NCBI GenBank assembly: GCA_973895155.1
Contig: OZ316893.1
Coordinates: 16,212,645 to 16,276,644 of the forward strand
Origin: Marsupella aquatica
Taxonomy: Eukaryota > Plantae > Marchantiophyta
Direction: 5' to 3'
DNA: 64,000 nucleotides
The notes beneath the pieces are model-generated. The model made no database searches. It was not told the DNA's origin and saw only the letters and a list, made by a program, of their open reading frames with translations. Position numbers and translations under genes: made by a program. Every line of letters starts with the position of its first letter. The first letter of the stretch is position 1. Shown here piece after piece: positions 14,701 to 56,000 of this stretch.

Positions 14701-15218
14701 ATGTGTCGTATGCTAATAAAAGCAAATATCAAGAAATATATGCTAAAAACTCGGTGTTCGTTCCTGTGGAATAACAAGAATGAGATGATAAAATATTTTA
14801 AAGTCTTTTGAGTGGTTTAGAGATGGTACTCGACATCTTGAAGAAAAATAGAATCTTAAATAAAACATAGGTAATTAACAAAATATGAACAAAAGTGACA
14901 TTTGTTGAATAATAGAATCTTAAAGCTTTTAGAGGTATAGTTTAGCAATCTTTAAGTCCATCCTCATGTATTAAGAAGGAGTTATGGCATTGTTTGAGAC
15001 TGTCGTGACATATAGTATCGTAGCCATATAGTGTATCGAAAACATACAAGTCACCAGCAATGCATATGTGCAAGCTGCTAGCAACCAACATGCATAGAAA
15101 AAGTTCAATCACATTCACAAGTGCCAAGAAAAAGCAAGTGAGGTGGTATGTACGTAGTGGAGGTATAAACCTCTGTATCCCCCCCCAGACCACAGCCAAA
15201 AGGAGGGCTGAAGAAAAG

Positions 15219-16910
15219 TCAGATAGCACGTGGAGCACAGGAAGGGCAAAACCATAACCCTTCTGGCACCTGGGTAAGTTCAGGCCGAAGGCAGAAAAGA
15301 TGGTACCCTCCATTGCAATTGTCACACAGCAGCATCATCAATTCGCAAACACACTGATCTGATAAAGCATCAGCATCATCAATTCGCAAACACACTTTGC
15401 AAGGGTAGTCCACAGGTGGAATCCAAGTAGAAGTCACAATGGTGGGATCCAGGTTAGGCAGATGACAAGGGGCGCAATTCTTGGCATTGTCAGCAATTGT
15501 GCGCCCATCTGCCCCTTGTAACTCTAGCACTCCAGACGGTCGAATAGCTTTAACCCTGAGAATAGTACGACTGGTAGAGGTGTCCAGGGTGTCGTTAGCT
15601 TGCCGCTGCAAGTACACAAAATCTCCCACATCAAACTTCCTGACCTTGGGCTGAAAAGTGCCACCTCGTGTGTGTGCATAACGCAGTGTGTCCCTGTGCT
15701 GTGCAATGGTCAAATTCTCCATGGCCATGGGCATAACCCTCCTGAATAGGGCAGCCCTCTCAGAGATCACATCAGACCAAGTCACAGCTGAATCCAAGTC
15801 CACCACCTGAAGCATGTGAGCAGCAATAGCAGAAGGTGGAACTGGGTGACGACCAAACAACAAGAAGTAGGGAGAAAAGTTAGACAGTGATGCATGTCTG
15901 GACATCCTATACCCCATGGCAATGTAGGGTAAGGCCAGGTCCCAATCCTCCTTGTTTTTGGTGAGGCAGATCTTCCGGAGACCCTTCTTGCATGTCTGAA
16001 CCATGCGCTCTGCCAAGCCATCTGCCTGTGGGTGATCTCGTGATGTCCGGCGATGATCAATGAGGGCCTGATCAAGCAGCTCCTGGAACTCTCCTCTAAA
16101 CTCTGAGCCCTGGTCAGTGAGACATTCTGCACAAGCTCCAAAGCGGCTGAGAACTTGTTGCAGGAATGCCTGGCTGGTGCTACGGGAGGTCTTATCCGGC
16201 AATGCCACAAGTTCTATCCACTTGGAGAAATGCTCTATCATGATCATGATGTAGAGATTACCCCGAGATGTGAGGGGTAATTCTCCAGCCAAATCACATG
16301 ACCAGCGATAAAACATGCCCTGAATAGGGAGTGGATGAAGTGTGGGTTGCCGAGATGTGAAAGAAGTCCTCACCCTATCACACTGTTCACACCGGGCAAT
16401 AACATCTCGAACCTGGCCATGCATGCCTCTCCAATGATAATGAGGGACCAAGAGGCTGTAAGTCCTCTTAACACCAAAATGACCAAGCTCAGAATGTACC
16501 TTACGGATAAGGCCAACCCTCTCATGAATGGGTGGAACCACCACTTCCCTGTCTAGCAAGCAGCGCACGAGATGATCTCCCTTCCACAAGTAGCGCTTGG
16601 ACCTTTGCTGAATTCGGTCTCTCTGGGCAGCAGTAACATGTGTGGGGTACTCCCCATGCTGCAAAAATCTCAGAGTGTCGCTGTCCTCCCATATGTCCAC
16701 CACAGGTTGGTCAACAACATAGCATGGCAGCAAAGCAAGATAGGTCGATGCATGAAATGTAGGCAGGATGGAAACCTGGTCAAAATCTTGCCGTGCATCT
16801 GAGGAATCATCAGAGGTAATCAAAGGGTTGCGGGACATAGTGTCAGCATTCTGATGTGTCACACCAGGCCTATGAATTACCTCAAAATCATACTCCTGGA
16901 GTATGAGCGC
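15219..16910 (-). CDS. Integrase with C-terminal PHD finger
   Basis: HHCC motif (HSELGH..CEQC), DDE core (CDLAG..TDQGSEF..LAERMV), then CKVC..MLLCDNCNGGYHLFCL..VPEGLWFCPSC (Cys4-His-Cys3). A short tandem duplication at about 15330-15396 lies inside the PHD. Confidence 0.92.
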   Translation of the reverse strand, partial: ALILQEYDFEVIHRPGVTHQNADTMSRNPLITSDDSSDARQDFDQVSILPTFHASTYLALLPCYVVDQPVVDIWEDSDTLRFLQHGEYPTHVTAAQRDRIQQRSKRYLWKGDHLVRCLLDREVVVPPIHERVGLIRKVHSELGHFGVKRTYSLLVPHYHWRGMHGQVRDVIARCEQCDRVRTSFTSRQPTLHPLPIQGMFYRWSCDLAGELPLTSRGNLYIMIMIEHFSKWIELVALPDKTSRSTSQAFLQQVLSRFGACAECLTDQGSEFRGEFQELLDQALIDHRRTSRDHPQADGLAERMVQTCKKGLRKICLTKNKEDWDLALPYIAMGYRMSRHASLSNFSPYFLLFGRHPVPPSAIAAHMLQVVDLDSAVTWSDVISERAALFRRVMPMAMENLTIAQHRDTLRYAHTRGGTFQPKVRKFDVGDFVYLQRQANDTLDTSTSRTILRVKAIRPSGVLELQGADGRTIADNAKNCAPCHLPNLDPTIVTSTWIPPVDYPCKVCLRIDDADALSDQCVCELMMLLCDNCNGGYHLFCLRPELTQVPEGLWFCPSCAPRAI

Positions 16911-17052
16911 TCAACGAGCAAGCTTGCCAGTAAGCTTGTCGTTGGTCATCAACCACTTCAAGGGCTGGTGGTCGGTGTAGAGAACAAACCTGGTCCCATA
17001 GAGGTAGGGCCTATAATGTATGACAGCCCACACAACAGCAAGGCATTCACCC

Positions 17053-19359
17053 TCATAAGAAGAATAATGACTCTGCCTGATTGTTGCTCCTGGATGCATA
17101 GGCAATGACGTACTCTTTACCTTCCTCATCATGCTGGCCCAGAATGGCACCAATCCCAAGGGCACTCCAATCTGTGTGTAGCACAAAGACCTTGTTGAAA
17201 TCAGGTCTTCTTAGCACCGGGTATTCTGAGAGCTTCTCCTTCAAAGTGGCAAATGCTGCCTCAGCATCTGTACTCCATGTCCAAGTCACATTCTTTTTCA
17301 ACAAAGCATACAATGGGTGTGCAATGGTACTGAAATCTTTGATGTAGATCCGGTAGTAATTGCACAACCCAATAAAACTCCTCAAAGTGTGAACATCAGT
17401 AGGAGTGGGCATTTCCAAGATGGATACCACCTTGGCCCAGTGAGCCATGGTTCCATTTGGAAGAATGCGATGCCCAAGATATACTACTGATCTGACAGCA
17501 AATTCACACTTCTTGGGGTGTATCTTTAGGTTCACCTTCTTAAGCCTCATGAATAGCTCCTCAAGGTCAAGTAGATGCTGGTCAAATCCTTTGCTGTGGA
17601 CCAACACATCATCAATGTAGCATTTCAGAAACTCAGTACCTTGCAGAACCTGGTCCATGACTCTTTGAAAGAATATGGGCGCATTCTTCAAGCCAAATGG
17701 CATCACCAACCACTCCCATAGTTGGTTACTACCATGGAAAGTTGTTTTCTTGCGATCCTTTGCAAGCAGCAAAATCTGGTTGAAGCCTTGCCTTAGATCC
17801 ACAAGAGTGAAGATGTCTGAGTCTCCAATGCTGTCAAATAGCTCCTCTGGCCGCGGCATGGGGTACCTGTCCTGGGGTGTGACCAGGTTCAATGGCCTAT
17901 AGTCCCCACACATGCGCTTCTCTGTCCACAATCCACTGGAATCCTTCTTTGCTGGCATCACTGTAGCTGCCGCAAAATCTGATGTAGATGGCTGAATAAG
18001 ACCAGCTTCATAAAGCTCTTGGCACCTCTCATCCACCAGCTGCCACTCATGCTTACTCAAACGGTGTCTCCGCCTAAAGATAGGTGTTTTATCAGCCAAC
18101 TCAATGGAGAACTGCATAGTCTTGCACTTACCCAAGTCCTTCATAGAGAAAGCAAACACATTCTCATGCTTGAGGAGCAAATTCAGCAGCTGGTCCTTCT
18201 GTCTTTTACTCAGGTGGTTGCCCATGATAAATGTGTAGTTGACAACACTAGGAATAGGACCTGATGTACTCGTGCTTGAAGAGCCAGAAGTGCCAGCCTC
18301 TCCACTGTCCAAGCTGCTAGCATGCTGTTGATAAGGTGATGAGGCCTCTCCAAGGCCTGTTGTATCTGTTGCTCTGGTCTGATCCACACCATGAAACTCA
18401 GAAATAATGTCAGCCACATTACAAGGGACCTCCTCCCCCCCAACACTTGGACTGAAGCGGTGAGTGTTGAATAGAGGTAAGTGCACCTGGTCTGGATGCC
18501 ATGTAGCAGCACTATGGAGGGGTAGGGCTGGAGCTCCTAATGCTGGAGGAATGTACATCTGAAAAAGGATGCAAGTGACCAGAAGCCAAGTGAGAGCATT
18601 GAGATCCATTACCCTACCAAGTAAAGCATTCCTGGCCAGCCTGGTGATTTTGGTGTGACCTGTAGTACTGGGTTGGAAGCCCATAGCCCGTTCTCTCTCC
18701 TCAGGACTAGGTTCATCCCATGTACCGGTAGAATGTTGATAAACCAGCCCAGGACCATCACCCTGAAAAGCATGTGCACCTGGAAAGGACACAAATGTAG
18801 GCCAAGCAGCACGGGGTTGTCCAATGGTATTAGCTGGATACCAAGGTGCTGGCTCATGCTGTGTAACTGGTTGGCAAGAACTGTCAGGATCCAAAATCTG
18901 GTCCACTATAAGGTTAGTGTCCCTGGATGTGTGGTGAAGAGCCATCTCCAGCAAGGAAGGTGGTGCAAGGTTAGTCCAAAAGTTACAAAGACGATGTGCA
19001 TAAGAACCACAGTGCACTGCATCAATGAGAAGGGGTGGTCCCAAGTAGTGCTGGACCACACTGAAATCCTCTTTGACCTGTGGACGCTGGTCAAACTGAG
19101 ATGGAGTATTCTCAATGATATAACCAACAGCAGGATAAAGGGATTGAGCCCAGGTGAGAATCTGAACCAATGCTATGAAAAGGCCAGAACGAGAATCATG
19201 CAGTCCAGCACCGTGACCAGCAGCTAAAAACCCTTGGCATTCCCAACCAGCTATGATCAAATCAAGGGAGCCAAGAAGGGTTAAGTGCCGGTGCTGGACA
19301 AGCTGGATATCTGGAGGAAAGAAAGAAAATGCAGACTTCCATGCACTGTGTGGAAACTG
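17053..19359 (-). CDS. DNMT3-like catalytic domain (motifs IV-X), reverse transcriptase and RNase H
   Basis: DLIIAGWECQGF (IV), YIIENT (VI), AHRLCNFWTN (VIII), ERERAMGF (IX), RLARNALLGR (X); RT RMCGDYRPLN, MPFGLKNAP, YIDD; RNase H LHTDWSALGIGAIL. Frameshift near 17070 and a W-to-stop at 16911. Confidence 0.9.
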   Translation of the reverse strand, partial: QFPHSAWKSAFSFFPPDIQLVQHRHLTLLGSLDLIIAGWECQGFLAAGHGAGLHDSRSGLFIALVQILTWAQSLYPAVGYIIENTPSQFDQRPQVKEDFSVVQHYLGPPLLIDAVHCGSYAHRLCNFWTNLAPPSLLEMALHHTSRDTNLIVDQILDPDSSCQPVTQHEPAPWYPANTIGQPRAAWPTFVSFPGAHAFQGDGPGLVYQHSTGTWDEPSPEERERAMGFQPSTTGHTKITRLARNALLGRVMDLNALTWLLVTCILFQMYIPPALGAPALPLHSAATWHPDQVHLPLFNTHRFSPSVGGEEVPCNVADIISEFHGVDQTRATDTTGLGEASSPYQQHASSLDSGEAGTSGSSSTSTSGPIPSVVNYTFIMGNHLSKRQKDQLLNLLLKHENVFAFSMKDLGKCKTMQFSIELADKTPIFRRRHRLSKHEWQLVDERCQELYEAGLIQPSTSDFAAATVMPAKKDSSGLWTEKRMCGDYRPLNLVTPQDRYPMPRPEELFDSIGDSDIFTLVDLRQGFNQILLLAKDRKKTTFHGSNQLWEWLVMPFGLKNAPIFFQRVMDQVLQGTEFLKCYIDDVLVHSKGFDQHLLDLEELFMRLKKVNLKIHPKKCEFAVRSVVYLGHRILPNGTMAHWAKVVSILEMPTPTDVHTLRSFIGLCNYYRIYIKDFSTIAHPLYALLKKNVTWTWSTDAEAAFATLKEKLSEYPVLRRPDFNKVFVLHTDWSALGIGAILGQHDEEGKEYVIAYASRSNNQAESLFFL

Positions 19360-22300
19360 CTAAGGAAATCGCTCTGAACATTCCAGCAGACGGGATTCAG
19401 CCACTTGCCTTGCACCTGGATCAATATCCACATAGATGTACTGCTTCACCACCATGCCAGACTGTAGGAGAGCTTCCAGGCCTGTAGAAATGCCACCAAA
19501 AAGCTCAAGCAATGTAAGGCCATCTGAAGGAGGAGTCCATGTAACTGGTGCGCTCAAGATTGGGGCTATTGGTAGTCCATGATGCTGCCCAAGGTCCTCA
19601 AATTTGTGCAATGCAGCCACCAAAGGTCCATGGGCTACTTGGAGCCGTTGTACCACCTCTGGTTGATGATCCACGTTGCTGGAAAGTGCTGCTACACGTG
19701 CAGCAGCATGTGCAGTAGCCACCTCATCCTCATCATCCTCAATCCAATCCTGCAATGGGTGGTTGACATAGGTAGCTATGTGCACTGCTTTCAATACACA
19801 GTGGTGAGCCATAGGTGTATGGGCACCATGCAAATCAAGTGGAATGTAGCCCAAGTGTGAGCCATCCGTATGCCAATCAACTCTGTAGTATGCATGCTCA
19901 TGCCAATTGTCAATGGTAAAACCTGGTGGGAACAAAGCCTCCTGGCCAATGAGCACATCATACGTAGTGGCATTGGTAACCAAACATCTGACTGGGAAAT
20001 GCAATTCCTGATCTGTACCTCCATTAAAAGTGAGAGTGAGTAAAGTAGAACTCTCACCCAGCACATCCTCCACAGTGCCACTAGCAGTCCGAATGTGCCA
20101 CCTGGATTGCTGTAAATGATCAGTCAACAGTCCCATCTTCTTGGCAAACTGAATGCCCAATATCACTGGTTGAGCACCTGTGTCTAGCATGACCACCTGA
20201 GGAGTGTGACCCTCCAACTTGACTGCTGAATTCCTGTTGTCAACAATGGCAATGGTGGTGGAAACTAAAGTCCTGTCACTAGGCACCACTTTTGGCAAAT
20301 GATGAGGTACCTTGTGAAGGGAGTTAGTGTCCACGGTCTTTCCACTCAACAACATAGCCAGGAAAGATGGAGCAGCATGACCAGAATCAAGTGTAGCTCT
20401 GGTCACACAATCAGCAGCAATCGGTACTGGGGCAGCCAAACCAGTGGAAACATGTAAAGGAGAAGAAAAAGGTCCAGTATGTACATGAGATTGGACCTCC
20501 AAAACCGGTGTCATAGGGGCTGATGAAGAATGCAGTGAGCCCTCTAGCGCTCTGATGACAGCTCTAGCATCCAGCTGTAAATCATGGCAACTGAAAAGTG
20601 GAGTTGTAAGAATCCTTTGTGCCATACCGGAGGTGAAATGCTCAAGCAGCTCAGGAGAAACAACTCCCTGTGAAATGTCAGCAGCACCTGGTGGTGGAAT
20701 GGATGTAGCTGCAGCTCCCTCCCCCCTCGCCAACAAGGTGCGCTCTTCAGCAAGTGTGAGTGGCTGAAAAGATTGGGGCAGGACAGCCCGAGCGCCCCTG
20801 GCTCTAGTCAGAGGACCGGCAGCAAGACCATCAGCCTGTACAATGCGGCGTGTGGGAGCAATACGGGAGGCAACACTGGCCTGCTGGTAAGCAAAATAGG
20901 AAGGGCAGAATGAATCTGAAAATTCTGCTGTAAGGCCAGGCTGTGGAGCAGAGGACAACACACACTCACCCATATGAGCATCAAATGGTAAGCCATAGAA
21001 AGAGCGGGGTAGAGGTGCTGAACTGTCAGCGGTGCCTGGGCCAGGGATGGGTTGCACGTGACCAGCCGGTTGAGAAGGACCAGCAGAGGCAGTGGACTTG
21101 CCTTTGATGTTGGCAAGTTGGGCACGTAAGGACTCAACCTCATGAGTCAGAGACTGGAGTTGAGTTGCCTGTGCGTTGTGAGCCTCCTTCTGAGCTGGTT
21201 GCTTCTGTGGCTGCTTGGGCAATTTGTTAGCACCGGGTGCTTTGCCACTGGAAGGAGGAGCAGTGGATGCAGTAGGAGCCCTCCTAGCTGGTGGGGGAGT
21301 GGAAACAGGAGCAGGATGAGTGGCCTGCTGTCGTAGCTGCTTCCTCTCGGGGAATTTGGCAAAATAGACTGCCTCCAAGTGGCCCACTTTCCCGCAAAAA
21401 TCACAAGATAGGTCCTCAGCAACAATATCACATTCATTAGCCTTGTGATTAGGGTTACCACAGTAGTTGCAAGATGGCAGCATGAAAGCAGCATGTGCTG
21501 GCTTGGTCTTGGAACCATACTGTGGCACACGGGGAGGAGTGGCCAGTGTAGGGGCAGCAGCCTGGTACCTGGATCGCGGTGGACGTGCAATACTGGCCTC
21601 ATAATGTGCATGGGCCAACTCAAGTTTCTCAGCAGTGTCATAGACATTGAGCAAGGTGTAGCTGTCTCCAAACTCTGAGAATACTTGTTGCAACACTTGT
21701 GAATGGAGAGCTGGTGTGCCCTCCAATGCGCGAAGATAGCGATGAGCAACTTCCAGGTCAGTGATGCTCTGGGTGTCCTCCTTCAGCTTGAGAAGCCGGA
21801 GATACATCATCTTCAATGTTTCATCGCGCTGCCTCACAAAGGTGGCCAACTGCATGATTTTGTCAGCACTCTTGATTGGGAATTCCAATTCAAGAACCTG
21901 GAAAAACTCAGCCACTGGATCAGCAAAGGCAGGGGAATCAATGGTGGGAGAAATGCCTGATGTAGCCTGTGCCAAGACAGTGGGAGTAACAGGCGCAGTG
22001 GTAGGAACTGGAGTAGGAGGGGAAGTGGCAGGAGCAGCAACATGGGCTGCAATGGCATTTTGTAAGGCCAATTGTGAAGCTGCCACAATTGCACTGGCAT
22101 AGGTAGGTGGGTTAGGCAACTGTGTGACAGCAAGCAGCCGTTGAGAGTGCTGCTTATACACATCTAAAGCCTCATGGTGCACATACCTGGCTAGCTGCTT
22201 AAATGCAAACGCATTTGTGAAATTGCTGCCGTACTTCAACTCCAATTCGTAAACGACAGTGTAAAAAGTGGATTTGAACTCACATAAAGAGACAGTGCCT

Positions 22301-22614
22301 GGCCGCCCGCTGAAGCGCTCAATGCGGCCAGATGAGTGGCTGGCATCCATGCTGTATGTCGGTGAAGCAGGAACAACCACTGATGCAGAAGGGGTAAATG
22401 GCAATGAAGTGATAGCAGGCTTCGGAGTAGTGGTGAAGCAACCGCCAAATGTAGCAGGAGGATTGCGTGGTGTTGGTGCTGCTGCTGTCTGCGGACGTCG
22501 TCGAAATTGACGAGACTCCAATGAAATTGGCACCAATGGTCGTGGATCACTCCGTAAGTGGTACCGGGGTGTCGGTGGCGATGAGCTGCTACGACTCGGC
22601 TCCTCTGCTGACAT
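19360..22614 (-). CDS. Gag-protease plus N-terminus of the C5 DNA methyltransferase (first segment of the polyprotein)
   Basis: Zinc knuckles CNYCGNPNHKANEC and CDFCGKVGH; aspartic protease VMLDTGAQ; DNMT motif I LLELFGGISTGLEAL and motif II YVDID. Ends at an in-frame TAG, and the same frame continues into the 19260 ORF. Confidence 0.9.
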   Translation of the reverse strand: MSAEEPSRSSSSPPTPRYHLRSDPRPLVPISLESRQFRRRPQTAAAPTPRNPPATFGGCFTTTPKPAITSLPFTPSASVVVPASPTYSMDASHSSGRIERFSGRPGTVSLCEFKSTFYTVVYELELKYGSNFTNAFAFKQLARYVHHEALDVYKQHSQRLLAVTQLPNPPTYASAIVAASQLALQNAIAAHVAAPATSPPTPVPTTAPVTPTVLAQATSGISPTIDSPAFADPVAEFFQVLELEFPIKSADKIMQLATFVRQRDETLKMMYLRLLKLKEDTQSITDLEVAHRYLRALEGTPALHSQVLQQVFSEFGDSYTLLNVYDTAEKLELAHAHYEASIARPPRSRYQAAAPTLATPPRVPQYGSKTKPAHAAFMLPSCNYCGNPNHKANECDIVAEDLSCDFCGKVGHLEAVYFAKFPERKQLRQQATHPAPVSTPPPARRAPTASTAPPSSGKAPGANKLPKQPQKQPAQKEAHNAQATQLQSLTHEVESLRAQLANIKGKSTASAGPSQPAGHVQPIPGPGTADSSAPLPRSFYGLPFDAHMGECVLSSAPQPGLTAEFSDSFCPSYFAYQQASVASRIAPTRRIVQADGLAAGPLTRARGARAVLPQSFQPLTLAEERTLLARGEGAAATSIPPPGAADISQGVVSPELLEHFTSGMAQRILTTPLFSCHDLQLDARAVIRALEGSLHSSSAPMTPVLEVQSHVHTGPFSSPLHVSTGLAAPVPIAADCVTRATLDSGHAAPSFLAMLLSGKTVDTNSLHKVPHHLPKVVPSDRTLVSTTIAIVDNRNSAVKLEGHTPQVVMLDTGAQPVILGIQFAKKMGLLTDHLQQSRWHIRTASGTVEDVLGESSTLLTLTFNGGTDQELHFPVRCLVTNATTYDVLIGQEALFPPGFTIDNWHEHAYYRVDWHTDGSHLGYIPLDLHGAHTPMAHHCVLKAVHIATYVNHPLQDWIEDDEDEVATAHAAARVAALSSNVDHQPEVVQRLQVAHGPLVAALHKFEDLGQHHGLPIAPILSAPVTWTPPSDGLTLLELFGGISTGLEALLQSGMVVKQYIYVDIDPGARQVAESRLLECSERFP

Positions 22615-22939
22615 GCTGCATGCTCACCCGGGGTGCCTAAATCAAAAATGTCCCCCTTCCCGGTGGTACGAGGTGCTGAGGGGAAAGAAACTGACAAGAA
22701 AAATGGGTGCTAGCCCCAAGGCTAGGAAATAAAACCCACAAAGGAAACAACCGTGCGAGGCAGAAATGTGTAGACTGGCCCTGCCGAAAATATACTCACA
22801 AAAAAAATGAACAGAAAGAAAACAAGAGGAAACGGCGAAAAGGGGCCTCCGTTATGTGTATAGACAGGGGTCTGTGTATACACATAAAGGGTACCGGTCG
22901 GTGTTGGGTATTTACTCTTACGTCTAGGTTAGGTATGAC

Positions 22940-23064
22940 GTGGTTGGTACAACAACGTGGGTTGGTACAACTACGTGGTTAGGTACAACTACGTGATTAG
23001 GTACAACTATGTGGTTAGGTACAACTACGTAATTAGGTACAACTATGTGGTTAGGTACAACTAA
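22940..23064 (+). repeat. 18-bp tandem array (GTGGTTAGGTACAACTAC) in the Copia LTR; repeated at about 28554-28678
   Basis: About 7 near-identical head-to-tail units with no spacers. Confidence 0.9.
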
Positions 23065-24028
23065 GTTGCACACTATATCATAAGAGGCATGTGTGCTTGG
23101 AGAGGTAGAACCAAGGCTCATTGTTATGGAGCCACTTGAGAGATAGGGAGAGCTTACACTGTGGAGACTCGGTATAGCCGACGGGCTTAGAGTTCAGTAA
23201 AGCTCTCTTGTGTGTTCCCGTGGACGTAGCCTCAAGGAGGTGAACCACGTATCTCTTGTGTCGACTATTGTGCGTTGGATGGTTCATGGGCTTGCCGTTG
23301 CGATCGTCGTCTATGCTCAACAATTGGTATCAGAGCATGCTTGGGAGGTGACGTGTGTTCGTGACGGGATTTCATGACGGTTTTTCCAGCGTTGAGTGTT
23401 GGTGGATTTTCCAGAGTTCCATCGCATGGAACTTGGAGTTTATGGGCTCAACGGATAGATCAGGGCAAGAGCTTTCTAACGGTGTGAAGAAATCGTTGAA
23501 CGGAGCTCGTGGTGCAGAGAGATCTAAGTTTTCGTCGTTCTGGATTTTGTGAAGAAAGTTGGCAATCGACTCGGAGGGAGAAGCGTCAAGTGTTTTGACT
23601 CAACGGAGAGATTGAGGCAAGACGATTGTTTTTGAGTCCGGGATTGGCTCTTTGATGCAAAGAGGAAGGCTAAGCAAAATCAATTACCTTGTTGGACTTG
23701 GTGACTGCACCAAGTGCAATTGATCAACATTCGTTGTTGACAAGTGAGGTCGTAGCCATTGAAGTTGGCAATGCAGCGCACCAATCACATCGCAATTCCG
23801 ACAACGGGTTGTACTTGGTATTTCGGTTATTCCCTGAGGTGGTCAAAACGGGGGAGTTTCCCAAGGTTTTACCCACCTCGACCGAAATTTGAATAACTTT
23901 TCCGTCAAATTTCGATTTTGATTTTGGTTTTCAGTATTGGACTCCTAGCTTTGTGGGCTACGCGGCGATGTTGAGTTTCGAGTTTTTTGAGAAGTTGTGA
24001 AAAACAACATTTTTTGTGACTTTCTCAT

Positions 24029-25063
24029 ATGAGTGATTCGGAGGAGTTTTTCGAAGACGTGGAACTTGAAGCACGAGGATCACCACGGAGGTTTCAGGGG
24101 CAGAGAGAGGAGCAGGAGGAAGAGCACGTGACACCGATACCATCACCGGTGCGGCGTGTGGTGGAGGAAGCAGTACTACTACCGGAGCTCACGGTAAAGA
24201 AGAAGATGGGGACTTTCAAGCTTGGGGGACCCAAGTATGAAGTGACAAAGTATGATGGGCGCTCTGACTACTTGCTATGGGAGAAGCAGGTGAAGGGAGT
24301 GCTTTATGCGTCAGGGATGGGCCAACTGCTGAGCCCTCGTGAAGACGATGTTGATGAGAAACAATGGGACCGCATGCAGGAGCAGGGAGTGTGGTGTGTT
24401 ACACTCTATCTCATGCCTCCCATCATCAAGCAGTTAGGTGCACATAAGGATTGCATGTCCTTGTTTGCGGAATTGCAGAGCAAGTATCACCGCAAGGAGT
24501 TGTCGAACCGGCTCTACACTTCCTACAAACTGATGAGTTTCAGGATGAAGGAATCTGGTACGAAGTTGCAAGACCATGTGGATGCTTTCAACGACATGGT
24601 CGTTGACTTGGAAAACCTTGGGGAGACTTTGAATGATGAGACGAAGGCTCTGCAGCTTCTTAGTTCATTGCCTCCATCTTACCAGTCCCTATCACGAGTG
24701 TTGTTGCATCGTGATAGGGATACCATTTCATACAATGACGTGGTAAGTTCTTTGCTTAGTGATGATCTTCAGCAGAAGATGCACATCACGTCACAGCCTT
24801 CATCATCTGGTGCTACCCTCAATGTTAACCGTGGGAGGAGTATGCAGCGACCAACTGGGGACCGTAGAACCCAGTTTAGATCTAAATCCAGATCTAAGTC
24901 CAAGGGTAAATCCCCTCAGAGGAGGCAGGTGACATGTTGGAAGTGCAACCAAGTTGGACACTTCAAGCGAGACTGTAAGGGAAAGGCAGCGGAAACTTCA
25001 TCGGCAAATGTGGCTAGGGCTGATGGAGAAGCTGATTTACTCAATGATGAGTATGTTTTATGA
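24029..25063 (+). CDS. Copia Gag
   Basis: KYDGRSDYLLWEKQV, LLSSLPPSY, and zinc knuckle CWKCNQVGHFKRDC. Ends in a TGA that is in frame with pol. Confidence 0.92.
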   Translation: MSDSEEFFEDVELEARGSPRRFQGQREEQEEEHVTPIPSPVRRVVEEAVLLPELTVKKKMGTFKLGGPKYEVTKYDGRSDYLLWEKQVKGVLYASGMGQLLSPREDDVDEKQWDRMQEQGVWCVTLYLMPPIIKQLGAHKDCMSLFAELQSKYHRKELSNRLYTSYKLMSFRMKESGTKLQDHVDAFNDMVVDLENLGETLNDETKALQLLSSLPPSYQSLSRVLLHRDRDTISYNDVVSSLLSDDLQQKMHITSQPSSSGATLNVNRGRSMQRPTGDRRTQFRSKSRSKSKGKSPQRRQVTCWKCNQVGHFKRDCKGKAAETSSANVARADGEADLLNDEYVL

Positions 25064-28000
25064 AGCCGGGGGTATGCCCTGTGCACGTCATCTAGGAGAG
25101 CAGATGATGTGTGGATTCTTGATTGTGCTTGCTCTTTTCATATTTGTTACATTCGTGAGTTTTTCAGTTCTTACTCTGTTTCAAACGGTTCAGTTCTGAT
25201 GGGAAATGATCACTCCTGTCAAATTGAGGGAATTGGGTCTGTGAAGATTCAAATGTTTGATGGCGCTGTGCGCACAGTGTCCGGAGTCAGGTATGTACCT
25301 GGCATGCGTAAGAATCTGATTTCACTCGGTGTGTTGGATTCAAATGGTCATCAATGGAGCGTTATTGATGGTGAACTTCAAGTCAGGTCGGGAGAGACAG
25401 TGATTTTGAAGGGGAGTAGACAAAAGAATTTGTATGTGTTATAGGGCAATACTGTATGTGGAGAGGCCAATATAACCAAGTCTCACGAGGAGATGACTCA
25501 ACTGTGGCATTCACGGCTAGGCCACATGAGTGAGAAGGGTTTGGCTATCTTACGGAAGAATGGACTCATTTCTGATTTGCAATCTTGTAAATTAGAGTTT
25601 TGTGAGCATTGCATTCTTGGAAAGCAGCATCGTCGTGCTTTTGGTGTTGGAACTCATCGTTCCAAAGCGGTTCTTGAGTACATACATAGTGACGTGTGGG
25701 GTCCATCCCCGACTCCCTCACACTCTGGAAAGTTGTACTATGTATCATTTATTGATGATTACTCAAGATTTGTGTGGATTTATTTCATGACGCATAAGTC
25801 TGATGTCTTGTCCATTTTTAAGAAGTGGAAGGCCCAGGTGGAGAATCAGACTGGAAACACGATCAAGTGTTTGGATACAAGGGTGAAGAGTCTGAGGTCA
25901 GACAACGGCGGGGAGTACACTTCAATGGAATTTGAAGAGTACTGTTCAGAACAGGGGATAACTCGCCATCTCACCACAGTTTATACTCCGCAGCAGAATG
26001 GTGTCGCTGAGAGGCTCAATCGGACACTGTTGGAGCGGTCACGGAGTATGTTGAGCCAATCAGGTTTACCACAAGAATTTTGGGCAGAAGCTGTCAATAC
26101 CGCAGCTTATTTGGTAAATCTTTCTCCTTCTAGTGCTATCAATTTCAAAACGCCATTTGAGATGCGCTATAAGCGGCAAGCAGACTATCATGGCTTGGTA
26201 ATTTTTGGAAGTGATGCATATGCTCTCACACCAAAGCAAAATAGGACCAAGTTGGATCCTACCTCCAGGAAATGTGTTTTTCTTGGGTACCAGAGTGGTG
26301 TGAAAGCCTATAGGCTATGGGATCCTATTGCCTGTAAGCTCGTTGTCAGTAGGGATGTTTCCTTCAATGAATCCAGATTATTGAAGGAGGGGGAGAATAC
26401 TCAGGTCTCCCGTACTGACAAAGGAAAATCTCCTATCCCGGATCTCGTTGAGGGGAAGATTGGTTATGAGGTGCATGACCGGAGAGAAGGAGTTGCTCCA
26501 ATTATGGAGCTGGTTCCTATGCCAGAGGAACCAGAGGAGTTTGTTGATGCTGGTGAGCAACAAGTGGATGCTGTTGAGCTTCAAATTGTACCAGCACACG
26601 CAGATCAACCAGAGTCATCGGCTAGAAGAACATCTGGTCGCACTGTACGCGCTCCATCAAGGTATGGACAGTGGGTTGATTCATCTCAACTGCAAGAGGA
26701 TGATTTTACAGTTGATGATGAGGGTGATGCGTTAATTTTGGAAGAAGGAGAACCTTCTTCATTTCATGAGGCAAGTGCTTCAAAAGAGAAGCAGAAGTGG
26801 ACTGCAGCAATGCAAACGGAGATGCAGTCACTAAAGGACAACAAAACTTGGGAGCTTGTTAAGCTGCCTAAGGGTCAGCAAGTGGTGGACAGCAAGTGGA
26901 TTTACAAGCTGAAGGATAATTCCATAGGAGGTGGATCGAAGGTCTACAAGGCTAGATTGGTAGCAAAGGGATTCACACAAGAGAAAGGTGTGGATTACAA
27001 TGAGGTCTTCTCACCAGTTGCTAAGTACTCTATAATTCGACTATTGTGTGTACTTGTTGTAATGTTTGGTCTGCTCCTAGATCAGATGGATGTTGTCACA
27101 GCTTTCCTCTATGGCACATTGGAAGAGGTGATCTTCATGAGACAACCGCTAGGTTTTGTGAAGAGAGGACAGGAGGAATTGGTTTGCAGATTGCTGAAAT
27201 CCTTGTATGGGTTGAAGCAGTCACCAAGACAGTGGAACAAGCGGTTTGACGATTGGATTCGGTCACAAGGTTTTCACAGAAGTGTATTTGACCCTTGTGT
27301 GTATTTGAAACCGGTGAAGAATGTTGTCTTTGGGTTCATTATTTTAGTACTTTATGTGGATGACATGCTAATTGCAGCCAAGGATAGGTCTGAGATTGTT
27401 AAGCTCAAGGCACTGCTTAGTGCAGAGTTTAAGATGAAGGACTTAGGGCCAGCTAAGAGGATTTTGGGTATGGAGATCACTAGGGACTTGGAGGCTGGCA
27501 AGCTATGGTTGACGCAGAGCAGTTATGCGAGGAAGGTAATTGCAAGGTTCAACATGGAGAATAGCAAGCCAGTAAGTACCCCGTTGGCTCCACACTTCAA
27601 GTTATCATCAGCGTTCTGTCCTACGGATGACACAGAGAAGGGGTTGATGTCAAAGGTTCCATATGACAAGGCAGTGGGGAGTCTCATGTATTTGATGACT
27701 TGCACTAGACCTGATCTTGCCATGGCTATGGGCAAGGTGAGCAGGTACATGTCGAATCCAGGGAAGGTACACTGGGAAGCAGTGAAGTGGATTATCAGGT
27801 ACTTGAAGGGTACCGTGGATCATGGTCTTTTATTTGATGCGAATGCAAAGAATGCTAGATCATTGATTGGCTATGTAGATTCTGACTATGGACAAGATTT
27901 GGACCGAAGGAGATCAACAACAGGATACGTGTTCACACTTGGCGGTGGATGCATAAGTTGGAGGTCTACTTTGCAGAAGTGTATTGCTCAGTCTACTACA

Positions 28001-28324
28001 GAAGCGGAGTATGTTGCAGCTGCGGAAGCGATTTGGTTGGATAGACTTATCACTGAAATGGGATTGCCACAGGGGAATGTGAAGCTCCATTGTGATAGTC
28101 AAAGTGCGCTCCACCTTGCTGTGAACCAGGTGATGGACAGCAGAGTGAAGCACATTGACGTCAGGTACCATTTTATCAGGCAGGCTGTGTCTGATAATTT
28201 GTTTGAGCTAGTCAAGATTGATGGTAAACTCAACCCGGCTGACGCATTTACCAAAGTGATTCCTTTGGAGAGTTTCTCTAGACACCGTGACGTATTGCAG
28301 GTTTTGCAATTGCATCACAAGTAG
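25064..28324 (+). CDS. Copia Pol (PR-INT-RT-RH) with one internal TAG at 25442-25444
   Basis: WILDCACSFH (PR), WHSRLGH..CEHC, HSDVWGP, SDNGGEY, QNGVAER (INT), KARLVAKGF, LYVDD (RT), YVDSDY..STTEAEY..KHIDVRYH (RH). Confidence 0.95.
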
Positions 28325-29815
28325 AGTTTTCTTAAACATTCATTGTAATTACTGATATATGCTCTTCCTCATTCCTATGTATTAGGCTACGGCTTAGTTC
28401 TGGTTTGCTCTAGTTAGAGAGGGAAACCGGTTTGGTTTTTGTCCAGAACTTCCCGCTGAGGGATCATATACATTGGCAGTATTACTCTCCCCTAGACCAG
28501 AGTCAAGGGGAAGATTGTTGGGTATTTACTCTTACGTCTAGGTTAGGTATGACGTGGTTGGTACAACAACGTGGGTTGGTACAACTACGTGGTTAGGTAC
28601 AACTACGTGATTAGGTACAACTATGTGGTTAGGTACAACTACGTAATTAGGTACAACTATGTGGTTAGGTACAACTAAGTTGCACACTATATCATAAGAG
28701 GCATGTGTGCTTGGAGAGGTAGAACCAAGGCTCATTGTTATGGAGCCACTTGAGAGATAGGGAGAGCTTACACTGTGGAGACTCGGTATAGCCGACGGGC
28801 TTAGAGTTCAGTAAAGCTCTCTTGTGTGTTCCCGTGGACGTAGCCTCAAGGAGGTGAACCACGTATCTCTTGTGTCGACTATTGTGCGTTGGATGGTTCA
28901 TGGGCTTGCCGTTGCGATCGTCGTCTATGCTCAACAGTCGGTACCCAATGTGGATACATCGTCGGGCTCCCTGGAAGAAAAAGAGGCGGGAAAGAAGCAG
29001 GTGTACGCACACTCGGGAGGCACGGTACCCTATGCTGCAGGGCGAGGCGAGGCGAGGCTGAGGCGAGGTGACAACTTAATGGCTCGGGCCCTGCATAGGG
29101 CTTCGTGCCCCACTATGAGCTCCCCCTATCCCCCTTTTGGGCCTTGTGCCCTGGCAGCGAGTGACTCCCGAGAGAGGAGTCGCGAGTACTCCCCCCCCTC
29201 TTTAAAGTTGAATTAAGGGCTTCGTGCCCTGCAGGAGAACTCCCGTGTGAGGGAGTTCGAATTGAACTCCCCTCCTCCTTGCACACTCGCTCCCCCTCCT
29301 TCCTGCTTTGGCTTGTACTTGGCTCCCCCTGCCCCTGCTTTAATGTTGCTTAGGGCCTCGTGCCCTCTCCTGCGCTCCTGCCTCCTGCCCTGATTCCCCC
29401 TATCCCTGCTTTAATTACTCCATAGGGCCTCGTGCCCTCCGTCCCCCCTCGCTTGCTTGTGGCAGGGCGACGAAAAGGAAGGGAGTCGATCCCCCTCCCC
29501 TTGTGGCAGAAAAGAAAGGAAGAAAAGGGGCGTTGCGAGGGGGAGAAACGGGCGCGCGGCCCTATGCACTTGGGAGGTAATCGCGGGGTGGCCGAGGCTG
29601 CCAGGAGGTGGTCGCGCGGTGGTCGAGGCAGCCGGGAAGTAGTCGCGCAACGGCCGGCAAACACCGAAAGAAAAATGGCCCAAATAAGCACCGAAAAATG
29701 CCAAAAGTGGTGGATGAGTCGTGCAGTCAGCAGTCGGCAGCCATAGTCGAGTTGCGGCCGACAAGAAATATCCGGGCCCCTTGTTATGTGTATACACTTA
29801 AGTATACACATAACA

Positions 29816-32800
29816 TCACAATAAACCCATAACTTTTAACTCGTCACTCCGATGTCCGTCGAAGAAATTGCAATGGCTTCACCAGAAATTGTCGAAATCG
29901 TCATGAGCAATCTTCTTCCCGTCACCGCTAACTCGAGAGTTCTTCTTGAATAAAAGGCGTGATAGAAACAAACGTACTGAAATCGAATCGAAAACCGGCG
30001 AGATGCCAAGATCGGCCAGGAGCATCTAACGAATCACTGTGTGAATTCCGTGTACGGAACCGACGAGCAGCCTCTGAAAAACTCTGTCTCACAGCGATTC
30101 AAGAAGAACTGAAGAACGGCAAAGAAAAACATGCCCTAAGTAGGACCGGGTCCAGGCGTCACACTAACAAACCCCTTTTGCTTCAAGAACAGCCCAGACT
30201 CGCTACAAGAACATGACACTAACTCAAGTAGTACATTAGCCCTAACCATACCTAGCGGGCATGCGAGGGACATGCCGATGTGCACAAGCGGCACTGTCCC
30301 TCGGCATGACAAGACATTGATAAATTAAACATAACCTTGCTATAACTGCTCTCTAGGTTTCTATCATAAATCTAAGTTTGAGAAGTGTCTATGCTCACAA
30401 AACCCAAGATAAGTTTTGGATTGTGTGTATAGTAGTGTATCATTAAAATGCCGGCTACATGTTTTCTTCTTCAACGATGCGCAATTCCAAAGGAAAACTA
30501 ATGCACATTCAGTATACCACAATGGTACTTCAAATCTGTGAATTAAGAATGTTGCTACTTCTTAACATATAGATTTCTCTTTCTTGATTACATGCAATAC
30601 TTATCTTCCAAAGATAAGTCCTTCATGTAAAATACAGAAATTGACAACAAATATTGTAGTTTGAATTAGGCACCAACCAACGGATCTTCCAATACAAATA
30701 ACAAGTTATATTTTTATAGGTTTTACTTCTTACGGCAATTGCAACATGCATTACCATACAAAGGAGGGGTAGACTCCTAGCACAAGCAATAAAATTTCAA
30801 GATATACAAATATTCCTTGCAAAAATTGCATTACAAGTACAAGGGACAAACTCCAAGATGAGGAGATGCAAATAACTATCCACACTGTCTCAAAATGAGA
30901 CTGGTATCACAATAAGTACATAAAATTGCCCACTGACTAAGGAGAATGAAGAGACATGCCTCTTCATTTCCTAAGTCTAAACTAAGTGAAATAAAAGTCA
31001 ACTTTGACTAAGGAGTAGTCAAGTAGTCAAAACTAGAATAAGCTAAGTAAAAAGTCTATAAGATAAAGTACTAATCTCATAGTATAATAGGAGAGGGGTC
31101 AACTACAAATAAAGTAAGACGAGCTACAAAACCAAGGCTATCTTTCCTTTAGCCTTCTGTCCCTTCAGATACTGTCGACAAAAAAGGTCCTCACGATAAT
31201 GAATAAGTTGTGGCTCACTGGTCTTTCGGATGGGATGTTCATCTGGTCCGATCCAAACAAAGTAATCTGATGGCCATGGAATGTCTGGGGTTGAAAGAGG
31301 GAAAGGTGCAATGACCTTTTTACAATGATAAACCCAACTCCACAAGTCAAGAGTCTCAATCTCTGGCAGTCGCAGCTTGTTGATAGGAAGCCACAAAATA
31401 CCACGAGAAACCGGAACTGTGTCGTAGGTATGTGGAAAAGGAAAAGACTCACGTCCAAACATAGGTGGAGGTAAGGGAGGTGCAAGAGGAATGCGTGCGT
31501 CAATGAGTGACGTGATCATCCTAGCAAACTTGGAGGGAAAAACAAAAAATGGTTCAATATCGGCAACAAAAGAGACAATAGGAGGCTGAGACACCAAAGG
31601 TGTAGGAGCTATAAATGGTACATTGGGAGGCTCTACAGTCTGAGGCTCAGGCTCAGTCTCAGGAATAGGCTCTGGGGTGGGTTCATTTTCTTCCCCAGTA
31701 GGAGAAGGAAATGAAACAACAGGGAGTGGTAGGGTGGTATCCTCGATGGGGGAGAATGGAATTGGAGTGGGTACTGGTGAAGGGGGTAAAGGCTCAAGGG
31801 TAGGAGATGAAGGGTGCTCGGGTGTAAATGTAGGAGGGATAGGTAAATCAATAATGGGAGAAGGAATGGGATCGGGTAAAGGGGGTGTAGGTGTGGATGG
31901 AAGAGGGAATGAAGGGTCAACAATAGGTATCTCCGGCTCATCCACATCCATAGGGTGGTCAGGCTATGGTGAAGGTGCAAGGGGTGAAACATGAGGTAGT
32001 GGGGTGGGACGAGACTTGAAAATCAAAGTACAAATACAATCAAGTAATTGCATGGGAGTATAACTCTTGAAAAGTCTAGTGGCCTCATCTACCAAATGCT
32101 GGTTGAAACCAGTCACACTAGCTAGTCTCTTGGCATCACCAACAAAATCAGTCCACAATGTGTAAGAGGTGGAAGCAACAAAAGAGGGAGAAATCATCCC
32201 TGGTAGGTCTGGTGCTATCATCTGCTTCACTGGATGGGGTCTTGGTGAAGTTGTGGGCGATGGAGTCAACTCTCCTCCTCCAATTGCTCAGCTCCACCGG
32301 TAACAAGCAGCCTCTCAAAAAGTGAATGTGCGCCAAGTAGGGTGTCAAATAAGTATCATTGGTGGTAGTCACGACAACCACCTGCTTGGCGATCACCTTT
32401 GAAAGAGCTAGGGCCCAGTTGATCTTCCTCTTGCCGGTCCATGAAGCAATGATGGAGCTGGCCAAGTAAACCATAGCCCTGGTAGGCTTGGTCGGATGAA
32501 AGATAGGTACAAGGAATCGGAGTAAATGAGCTAACTCCCGGTTCCTACACTAATCAATCTTCCAACCAGACCTTTGGTTTCTGGTACCTCTAAAGTAGGG
32601 GACAGTCATCTTCTCCAACAGAAATCAATCTCTCTCCAACCTGGCTCAACTGGTACACTAGACCAGTCAAGGGCCTATTTAAGCAGATGAAAATCTCACC
32701 ACCTAAAGTTCACCTAAATGTCTACTACATACTCATGCAGGGGAGTGACCCTAAAGGTTTTCTCAGGATCCAAGAACTTCTCAGCAAAGCACTATCTACT

Positions 32801-37400: not shown

Positions 37401-37891
37401 CCATGTGTGCATTGGAGGATATGAACATAGCTCAAAAATTTCACTTTCCATTATGAGAGCCTTTGTAAATGTTTGCAATTAGAAGAAATTAAGGTCTCAT
37501 GTTAATTGCTTTTGCTTTTTGTTATCTCTATCAAAACATATAATACACTATTGCACCAGAAAATGGCGTGACCATCATTTGAATTTAACATGATGTTTTG
37601 GGTGGGAAGTACCAAAACTGTAAAAAGAAAGGAATAAATCTGGAAAAACTGTCCTCCACTTTTCTCCCCGCAACCCTCTCCTCTCGGCCCTCAATGCACA
37701 GTGGTGCAGCCACGTGTCGCTCTCCTCCCCCCCCCTCCCCGCCATGCTGCCCTCTTCGGTGTGCTCCTCTCTCCCTCCAAACTCCAAGTACTCTAAGGAG
37801 ACAAAAATAACAAAACCTCCAACCTTTAACATCTTAGCTTGCATCTTAGGCACCTCAACATCTTTTTACTTTGCGCCATCTTTGACATAAC

Positions 37892-43097: not shown

Positions 43098-43102
43098 ATA
43101 AC

Positions 43103-43755
43103 ATCATTGTTTTACTTGACAACATCTTTGGCATCCTGACATCTTTCTACTTCGCGACATTTTACATGATACAACATCTTTTGCGCCATGGTATTTTTTT
43201 AATTTCTTGACATCTTTTTACTTCACTACATCTTTGGCACCACGACATCTTTTTACTTCACAACATCTTGACATAACAGCATCTTTGGCGCCATGACATC
43301 TTTTTACTTTGCGCCATCTTTGACATAACATCATTGTTTTACTTGACAACATCTTTGACATCATGACATCTTTCTACTTCATAACATTTTACATGATACA
43401 ACATCTTTTGCGCCATGGTATTTTTTTAATTTCTTGACATCTTTTTACTTCACTACATCTTTGGCAGCACGACATCTTTTTACTTCACAACATCTTTGAC
43501 ATGATAGCATCTTTGGCGCCATGACATCTTTTTACTCGATGACATTTCTTTACTTGATGACATCTTTCACATAACGACATCTTTGGTGACAAAACTTCTT
43601 TATTCTTAACATTTTTTTTCTTGGCGACATCTTTCACATAACGACATCTTGGGTTACACGACATCTTTTTTCTTATCAACGTCTTCACATAACAACATCT
43701 TGGGCAGAACGACTTCTTTTTTCTTATCGACATCCTGACCGACACGACATCTTTT
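43103..43755. repeat. Degenerate ~20-bp tandem array (GACATCTTT core) with a larger ~240-bp higher-order repeat, inside the Helitron
   Basis: acatcttt recurs more than 25 times. The array also appears at 37855-37891, left of the Bianca insertion. Confidence 0.85.
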
Positions 43756-55279: not shown

Positions 55280-56000
55280 TCTAGCACCACCACCACTACC
55301 CCCCTCAGGCTGAGTCTCACCTCTATCACTATGATGGGAACCTCCCCTTCATGGAAACTCAGTTCACTCGCTCCGCCATCCGGGTGCGGATGAATGCGGA
55401 ATAGAGCGCACACGACTGGGTGCCTACACCACCACTATGAATAGGAGATGGTGTGGGCACATGACCACCAAGGCCCCCCCGACTGTCGCGAACCAGCTGG
55501 TACACTACCAGGGCCAGCCCTAAACTGACGAGGTGCAACAACTCCACCACTACCCCCTCAAGGCGAGACTCACCTCCACCACTATGGCTGGAACCTCCAG
55601 ACTGGATGCCTACACCACCACTATGAACAGGAGATGGTGTCGGCACATGACCACCAAGGCCTCCCCCTGACTGTCGCAAACCAGTTGGTACACTACTAGG
55701 GCCAGCCCTAAACTGACAAGGTGCAGCAACTCCACCACTACCCCCCTCAAGGCAAGACTCACCTCCACCACTACGGCCAAAACCTCCAGACTGGATGCCT
55801 ACACCACCACTATGAACAGGAGATGGTGCCGGCACATGACCACCAAGGCCTCCCTTGGACCGTCGTAAACCAGTTGGTTCACTATCAGGGCCAGCCCTAA
55901 ACTGATGAGGTGCAGCAACTCCACCACTACCCCCCTCAGGGTGAGACTCACCTCCACCACTACGGTCGGAACCTCCTGACTGGCCAACGACATGACCAGT
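55280..56000. repeat. ~189-bp tandem repeat, 3-4 copies, giving a Gly/Ser-rich minus-strand ORF
   Basis: ggtgcagcaactccaccactacccccctca recurs at about 55532, 55720 and 55909, with a partial copy near 55290. Confidence 0.85.

Follow-up and report, generated by a model that had tools for sequence, protein, structure and literature searches.

Integration-site choice by plant retrotransposons is a long-standing question, to which the chromodomain is the textbook answer. The window analysed here, a stretch of 64,000 nt from contig OZ316893.1 of the liverwort Marsupella aquatica, raises this question in another form, as it contains a Gypsy integrase that appeared from its sequence to end in a PHD finger. 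The original prediction held that this finger stands in place of a chromodomain and that it is paired with the DNA methyltransferase (DNMT) of the same element as a histone reader with a writer. The identity of the finger, its conservation among related elements, its possible ligand and its relation to the DNMT were examined in turn.

Structure and decay of the element

The finger belongs to a Gypsy element that runs on the minus strand from 30311 to 15001, measures 9271 nt (9.3 kb) without a nested Copia element, and is bounded by a 4-bp target duplication (Table 1). The domains follow the order gag (with a zinc knuckle), protease, DNMT3, reverse transcriptase (RT), RNase H, integrase and PHD. 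The window copy is dead: one stop interrupts the DNMT and another lies just before the integrase, the frame is broken near 17070, and its leader is split by the nested Copia. The latter has in-frame stops of its own at 25061-25063 and 25442-25444. The summed contig depth in public run X1, which is not a copy number, was about 100,000 over the element versus 100-300 in its flanks, and shows that the Gypsy-DNMT3 family is highly repeated. Among the matches listed, the nearest named proteins came from the liverwort Calypogeia fissa (78-86% identity).

Table 1. Coordinates of the Gypsy element, its coding domains, its terminal repeats and the nested element within the window.
Feature	Position	Strand	Remarks
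Target-site duplication AGAC, left copy	14997..15000		Joined flank in runs X3 and X6
Repeat B, closing the element on its 3' side with ...CACGACA	15001..15178	-	Loose ends at 15001 in four runs
G8 polypurine tract adjoining B	15179..15186	-	
Last part of RNase H, then integrase (H2C2 zinc domain, DDE core and an SH3-like region lacking GPY/F) and PHD	15222..16910	-	
PHD finger (C4-H-C3), integrase C-terminus	15237..15401	-	PF00628, ligand codons and structure model
Exact 26-nt repeat, two copies 15 nt apart; lengthens the C2-C3 loop by 30 nt net, in frame	15330..15396	-	
In-frame stop upstream of the integrase	16911..16913	-	Absent from most copies in public runs
RT and RNase H	17056..18221	-	Frame break near 17070
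DNMT3-like C5 cytosine methyltransferase	18571..19530	-	PF00145 E 0.001 (weak); stop at 19360-19362
Gag with zinc knuckle, aspartic protease and DNMT start, in a single frame	19363..22623	-	
Young Ty1/copia element in the 5' leader	22902..28936	+	421-nt LTRs with zero mismatches; 5-bp duplication GTCGG
12-nt primer-binding site adjoining A	29938..29949	-	Complementary to 30099-30110; putative Tf1-like self-priming
Repeat A, opening the element on its 5' side with TGTCATG	29950..30311	-	Predicted self-primer 30099-30110
Target-site duplication AGAC, right copy	30312..30315		

The insertion target was another repeat (14704-15000, and 30316 onward), and both flanks were found joined in runs X3 and X6. 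The 5' leader contains two related palindromes (22852-22887 and 29782-29815; TTATGTGTATA...TATACACATAA), which are possibly packaging or dimerisation hairpins. Elsewhere in the window, a decayed RT-RNase H of a related Gypsy lies on the minus strand at 1-1230 and extends past the window edge (36-60% identity to the related protein P0125), a second Copia-like element with 35-nt tandem units near its end occupies 37841-43745 on the minus strand, and a 189-nt tandem array is present at 55283-56114.

A PHD finger at the integrase C-terminus

The minus-strand open reading frame (ORF) at 15219-16910 encodes 563 aa comprising the end of RNase H, the integrase and a terminal C4-H-C3 finger, with the ligand pattern CKVC-x21-CDNC-x4-H-x2-C-x14-CPSC closing the ORF. 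All eight zinc ligands were present (C504, C507, C529, C532, H537, C540, C555 and C558, encoded from 15401 down to 15237). The search with the Pfam profile PF00628, which had been proposed together with the original prediction, returned a match at E 2e-7 downstream of Integrase_H2C2 and rve, with 31.3 bits against a cut-off of 24. Besides the C4-H-C3 ligands and a score above the cut-off, the finger possesses the Trp two before C7 that belongs to the features of the PHD class. The top match of its structure model was the complex of the ATXR5 PHD with H3 (5vab; TM 0.82 on the target, rmsd 1.8). On the profile match, the eight ligands and the resemblance of the model to solved PHDs, the finger at the integrase end is a genuine PHD zinc finger, as had been predicted.

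The SH3-like region closes with a conserved APCHLP-(N)-D-P stretch, and the finger follows it directly. No chromodomain was matched in the window protein (Pfam, E up to 0.1), and the GPY/F motif was found in 0 of 216 PHD-bearing related proteins. Among 52 relatives scanned, one (P0213) gave a weak chromo match, behind the PHD. The notion of a PHD "in place of a chromodomain" thus holds in that the position of the chromovirus chromodomain is occupied by a PHD, but in this positional sense only.

Spread and conservation of the finger

In a protein search with the integrase as query, 240 of 606 matches were listed, and 216 of these 240 possessed a PHD by profile; of the other 24, 22 end too early, and two have room for a PHD, yet lack it. 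The named hosts of the listed relatives included Calypogeia, Klebsormidium, Coleochaete, Chlamydomonas, Volvox, Pleodorina, Tetrabaena, Haematococcus and Tetradesmus. Among metagenome loci, the best 80 of 493 were taken (including six duplicate pairs); all 71 with room for a PHD had one, and the DNMT was also present in 43 of the 45 with room on both sides. As integrase searches favour the PHD, which was part of the query, a separate search was performed with the DNMT alone (full HMMER, best 150 of 1088 matches). It yielded 49 matches with an integrase and room behind it, and the PHD followed the integrase in 47 of them. The finger is therefore dispensable in some lines, and no chromodomain was found in the two PHD-less integrases either. 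A word-indexed DNMT search of long proteins gave two matches, both with a PHD, and no relative was found in the viral contigs searched. By the counts for proteins (216/240), loci with room (71/71) and DNMT-found integrases (47/49), the PHD is carried by most copies, as the original prediction demanded.

Relative to related loci, pN/pS was 0.15-0.18 for the finger, 0.17 for the integrase core and 0.48-0.57 for the linkers (Jukes-Cantor dS was saturated for PHD, RT and SH3; raw pN/pS is quoted, with the six duplicate loci dropped). These ratios indicate that the finger is under purifying selection, with a constraint like that of the integrase core.

A tail of at least 280 residues behind the finger was observed in 67 of the 216 PHD proteins, and an SP(W/P)F-like motif occurs in 24 of these 67 tails. 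In P0357, the tail is similar to phage class I SAM methyltransferases (score 0.95); P0320 and P0194 are also tailed. Some chlorophyte-type elements would accordingly carry a PHD, a DNMT3 and an amino-methyltransferase.

Possible ligand of the finger

The best solved matches in both sequence and fold were the fingers of ATXR5, WSTF, BAZ2A/B, KDM5 PHD1, CHD4 and ORC1b, among which those of ATXR5, BAZ2A/B, KDM5 PHD1 and ORC1b are readers of unmodified H3. None of ING, BPTF and TAF3 was among the solved matches listed. H3 is contacted in KDM5B PHD1 via L325, D328, P347, G349, W351 and D308 (PMC4225485), and in the ATXR5 PHD via Pro60, Gly62, Asp41 and Asp44, the K4 pocket of the latter being formed by main-chain carbonyls that are invisible to sequence comparison (PMC5499861). 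Because the spacing of the finger equals that of KDM5B and ATXR5, the H3-contact positions map without gaps (the register to KDM5B was taken from ungapped KDM5D and Lid alignments).

Across the 216 fingers, the KDM5B L325 position (C3-2) was hydrophobic in 100%, the D328 position (C3+1) was D in 95%, and the P347, G349 and W351 positions were P, G and W in 98%, 78% and 90%, respectively; the window finger has L, D, P, G and W at these five positions. The most conserved non-ligand residues of the 216 fingers are those of the H3 Ala1/Arg2 pocket. At the position two before the His, which we take to be the site of the H3K4me3 cage tryptophan, 94% of the 216 fingers have Gly, and the aromatic cage tryptophan is absent. 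Since the Ala1/Arg2 residues are kept and the H3K4me3 cage is missing, the finger is likely a reader of unmodified H3, and likely does not read H3K4me3. Conservation is poor at the K4-contacting acid, with an acidic residue at C1-4 in 15% and at C1-3 in 53% of the 216 fingers, and at the position of the second Arg2 acid of ATXR5 (C4+1), with one in only 11%; binding may accordingly be weak, or insensitive to K4 methylation.

We therefore lean towards reading the finger as a conserved add-on of the integrase that probably binds unmodified H3. In an active family, the integrase-PHD would dock the integration complex on the free, unmodified N-terminus of H3, the finger holding Ala1-Arg2-Thr3 as its homology to KDM5B PHD1 and ATXR5 suggests. 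Such docking would bias new copies away from H3K4me3 promoters.

The finger and the DNMT3-like domain

The best solved relative of the DNMT is DNMT3A (E 2e-4). Motifs I, IV, VI, VIII and X are kept across 74 relatives (catalytic Cys 93%, ENx 93%), and pN/pS relative to related loci was 0.34 for the DNMT compared to 0.48-0.57 for the linkers; it may be active as a methyltransferase. The co-occurrence of PHD and DNMT, which had also been put forward as a check, proved near-perfect in integrase and DNMT searches alike: 92 proteins possessed both, three full-length proteins the PHD only, and two the DNMT only. It is so frequent that the two domains may be functionally linked.

In DNMT3 enzymes, the ADD domain is composed of a GATA-like and a PHD-like part and lies directly N-terminal to the catalytic domain. 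The PHD of the present elements is of the canonical type and C-terminal to the DNMT, 500-1130 aa away, a layout that is not that of an ADD, and no ADD structure was among the solved matches listed for the finger. The distance between the PHD and the integrase core has a median of 131-133 aa in every class, whereas the DNMT has two sites. In the streptophyte-type clade to which the window belongs (P0125 type; seven proteins and the window), it lies before the RT, about 1000-1130 aa upstream of the PHD; in the chlorophyte-type clade (P0212 type; 87 proteins), it lies between RNase H and integrase, about 500 aa upstream of the PHD and about 130 aa from the integrase. The finger being tied to the integrase, the DNMT being sited in two places and three elements having the PHD only, the ADD-like reader-plus-writer module of the original prediction is not supported. 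Five before-RT DNMTs nest as one group (support 0.96) among those found between RNase H and integrase, which suggests a single capture and a later move.

A functional version of the same idea would have the PHD guide or license the element's own DNMT3 at H3K4me0 chromatin, like the ADD of DNMT3A, so that the new copy or its flanks are methylated on arrival. It is consistent with the near-perfect co-occurrence in both search directions and with the DNMT3-like nature of the methyltransferase, and the short distance before the integrase in the chlorophyte type might leave the DNMT fused to it. In the window's clade, however, RT, RNase H and integrase separate the DNMT from the PHD, the DNMT moved while the PHD stayed with the integrase, three full-length PHD elements lack a DNMT altogether, and the finger is a canonical KDM5/ATXR5-type PHD. 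A further point in its favour is a shortage of CHG in the first 1.5 kb beyond the 3' end of related copies, at 26 of 30 loci (o/e 0.34 vs 0.75 further out), but CG in the flanks was flat (0.26 vs 0.31), and the CHG signal fits host silencing spreading from old copies; there being no control family, the gradient was not used as support for targeting. A reader-writer module acting in cis is consequently unlikely in the window's clade, and more thinkable in the chlorophyte clade.

The CHG gradient was measured in the 3' flanks of 30 distinct related insertions; none is plain in the window itself.

LTR polyproteins are processed into separate proteins (PMC6317226), and by such processing the protease would free the integrase-PHD and the DNMT separately in the window's clade. 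Released in this way, the DNMT would act without the finger, on new cDNA inside the particle.

Circularly permuted repeats and integration ends

No direct LTR pair was found in the window. In related loci, a repeat B of about 180 nt lies behind the finger and a repeat A of about 300 nt opens the element. Among 52 distinct related insertions, 23 have the form A-coding-B-nn-A-B and 29 have a single B. The window copy has one B (A-coding-B), and the A|B joints of its family appear in the runs as loose ends at 15178. Both termini were available at 14 loci, where the 4-bp duplication was exact in six and had one mismatch in four more.

In 65 of 67 related loci, B begins directly after a G-run. The 12-mer adjoining the end of A pairs best 31-32 nt behind a TATA box in 17 of 21 loci, and in the window the primer site and the self-primer form a 14-nt inverted repeat, with 12 of 12 pairs and two compensated changes relative to related loci. 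The pairing score alone is weak, as control 12-mers reach 9-10 of 12 with G-U; the evidence for self-priming is the fixed position. The polypurine tract (PPT) and the primer site define the repeat as B-nn-A, but inserted copies open with A and close with B. This arrangement amounts to a circularly permuted LTR and suggests that integration proceeds from a junction inside the LTR. The A2|B2 joint varies, with 15 versions of its last 5 nt among 33 loci (TCAAT in 13), and one related insertion retains the PPT at this joint. The junction CACGACA-GT-TGTCACG is also present in the distant locus L078.

By reverse transcription, each cDNA end would become a B-nn-A unit, within which the insertion ends TG and CA would face each other across two bases. 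A cut at CA-nn-TG would yield the short form from a one-LTR circle and the long form from a two-LTR circle, and the variety of A|B joints would fit a ligation of cDNA ends. The inserted substrates would then be one-LTR and two-LTR circles, or a split linear equivalent, and the integrase would ignore the cDNA ends. The short form could also have arisen by recombination between B copies or by assembly collapse.

A symmetric two-LTR-circle model was considered and rejected: in the 21 loci with a 5' A, B before this A, which would give the mirror form A-B-A-coding-B, was found in none, and B-A-B at the 3' end in 10. As the mirror form was never found, the proposed cut would not be symmetric; conceivably, the junction completed first would be bound first.

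In the four runs, repeat B (15044-15191) had 2 to over 10 times the depth of the element's internal part, more than two copies per element account for, and solo A-B units or shortened derivatives may be frequent.

The unusual end structure of this lineage may need extra parts, and the finger could be one of them, as a structural or non-histone module involved in integrase multimerisation, in the binding of an H3-mimic host protein or in recognition of the internal LTR junction. Its packing right behind the conserved APCHLP-(N)-D-P stretch and the variation of its K4-reading residues would agree with such a role. We nevertheless regard it as quite improbable, given that the top-conserved non-ligand residues match the H3 Ala1/Arg2 pocket exactly and that two relatives do without the finger.

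With the finger as a reader of unmodified H3, the observations can be combined into one tentative picture, which we consider possible but somewhat short of an even chance: a green-plant-wide lineage with self-primed cDNA, whose integrase would cut the internal CA-nn-TG, whose PHD would dock on H3K4-unmethylated nucleosomes and whose packaged DNMT3 would pre-methylate the copy.

A private insertion in the finger of the window copy

The C2-C3 loop of the window finger has 21 residues compared to the usual 11, a net gain of 10. The loop has 11 residues in 188 of 214 aligned related proteins (range 10-15) and in 60 of 73 related loci, the remaining 13 being unparsed. It contains an exact 26-nt repeat (15371-15396 and 15330-15355, offset 41 nt; chance about 2e-11), whose second copy is translated in another frame (ALSDQCVCELM). 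What had been noted as a small tandem duplication is therefore a real repeat, but not a simple tandem one, as 30 nt were gained overall, in frame, while the repeat's second copy is read in a different frame. Public runs carry the family finger without the 30 nt, which makes the insertion private to this copy: in two runs the contig over the finger aligned with 30 gaps, and in the other two the depth went down to about a tenth or less in the finger bin.

In two AlphaFold models, pLDDT was about 50 in the insertion and 73-89 in the finger halves. As for the suggestion that the duplication may disable the finger, the insertion may well leave it folded, since the short model still matches the ATXR5 PHD best. 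The insertion is best described as a private lesion with which the fold may survive, and it is irrelevant to function, since the copy is already broken upstream. Although the same private insertion would suit a recent host-gene fragment or an assembly artefact on one dead copy, we give this origin practically no credence, as hundreds of relatives (in liverwort, Klebsormidium, Coleochaete and chlorophytes) share the finger at the same spacing, purifying selection acts on it, and run depth over the finger resembles that over the integrase.

Comparison with known elements

With a DNMT3-like domain in an intronless Gypsy Pol ORF, the element is of the Gypsy-DNMT3 kind. In the integrase tree (FastTree, midpoint root, 226 sequences), the window, Calypogeia and Klebsormidium nitens fell in one clade of 83 (support 0.92), the K. 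nitens side being homologous proteins and not the curated KnitGypsy-Dnmt3 copy. By these features it is grouped with the published KnitGypsy-Dnmt3 elements and not with chromoviruses or DIRS elements. For K. nitens, a Gypsy with a DNMT3 and repeats in the order A-coding-B-A-B has been described (de Mendoza et al. 2018, PMC5890265), and the lineage studied here has the same DNMT3-like enzyme in Gypsy Pol and the same repeat order. Among K. nitens homologues, P0234 has the DNMT before the RT, and P0008 and P0029 have the integrase and the PHD. The lineage differs in that it also occurs in a land-plant-like genome and in chlorophytes, and the window copy in that it has the shorter A-coding-B form. 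"PHD" does not appear in the text of PMC5890265 or of its three supplements, figures aside, and the text offers no mechanism for the A/B repeats.

Two other assignments were rejected. The DIRS order was discarded on the DDE integrase and the 4-bp duplications, DIRS elements having a tyrosine recombinase. A chromovirus was discarded on the features compared, as the window protein has no chromodomain and GPY/F was found in 0 of 216 proteins. Chromoviruses, as described by Neumann et al. (2019, PMC6317226), resemble the lineage in having a histone reader at the integrase C-terminus that is thought to steer integration, and, in the Tcn1/Tf1 group, in self-priming; they differ from it by its PHD, its absence of GPY/F, its 4-bp duplication and its lack of a canonical LTR pair.

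A PHD in Gag-Pol has been described for Gypsy-7a_cRei of Chlamydomonas reinhardtii, an active element for which the authors suggest targeting and report 2.6 times more intergenic insertions than by chance among 86 new copies (Craig et al. 2023, PMC9940879). This bias would agree with insertion guided by a PHD, but may come from selection. By description, Gypsy-7a_cRei shares with the lineage a Gypsy Gag-Pol with a PHD, whether or not the two are kin; it differs in its length (15.4 kb with an 11.3-kb internal part), in the absence of a DNMT among the domains named, and in the legend order, with PHD before INT.

Readers and transposons have been joined repeatedly, PHD and chromo being the commonest reader-transposon fusions (bioRxiv 10.1101/2021.11.30.470311), and PHD-transposon fusions are common (PMC2836005, PMC8557442, PMC6673714). 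In Ginger1-9, a PHD also lies behind a Gypsy-like integrase (PMC2836005). EpiLTRs likewise combine a reader and DNA methyltransferases in one element, but with a chromodomain and a DNMT4-related enzyme; the same source names the streptophyte Gypsy-DNMT3 a separate capture, in a text silent on PHD (bioRxiv 10.64898/2026.05.21.726589). The ATXR5 PHD and KDM5B PHD1 share with the present finger the ligand spacing, the P-x-G-x-W of the Ala1 pocket and the Arg2 aspartate (PMC5499861, PMC4225485), but are parts of SET/JmjC enzymes, whereas the finger here is on an integrase and has variable K4 and second Arg2 acids. In full-text searches of the literature (subscription journals, Repbase reports and theses excepted), no paper was found in which PHD, DNMT3 and Gypsy are brought together for green plants at large, nor one that explains the split ends.

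Implications for the lineage

Taken alone, the PHD finger is a known sort of add-on, and the end structure is the most surprising trait of these elements. Surveys of the LTR-FINDER type, which depend on matched TG..CA LTRs, would miss the family, as it has no canonical LTR pair. Gypsy-DNMT3 elements, previously from a single alga, are now extended to much of the green lineage, and in a lineage spanning chlorophytes, charophytes and liverworts a PHD is found at the chromodomain position. The intact gene model CHLRE_09g398141v5 in C. reinhardtii makes the targeting idea testable in a laboratory alga. If true, the proposed route would show in a natural eukaryotic element the circle-junction integration once proposed for retroviruses, together with a new kind of targeting domain.
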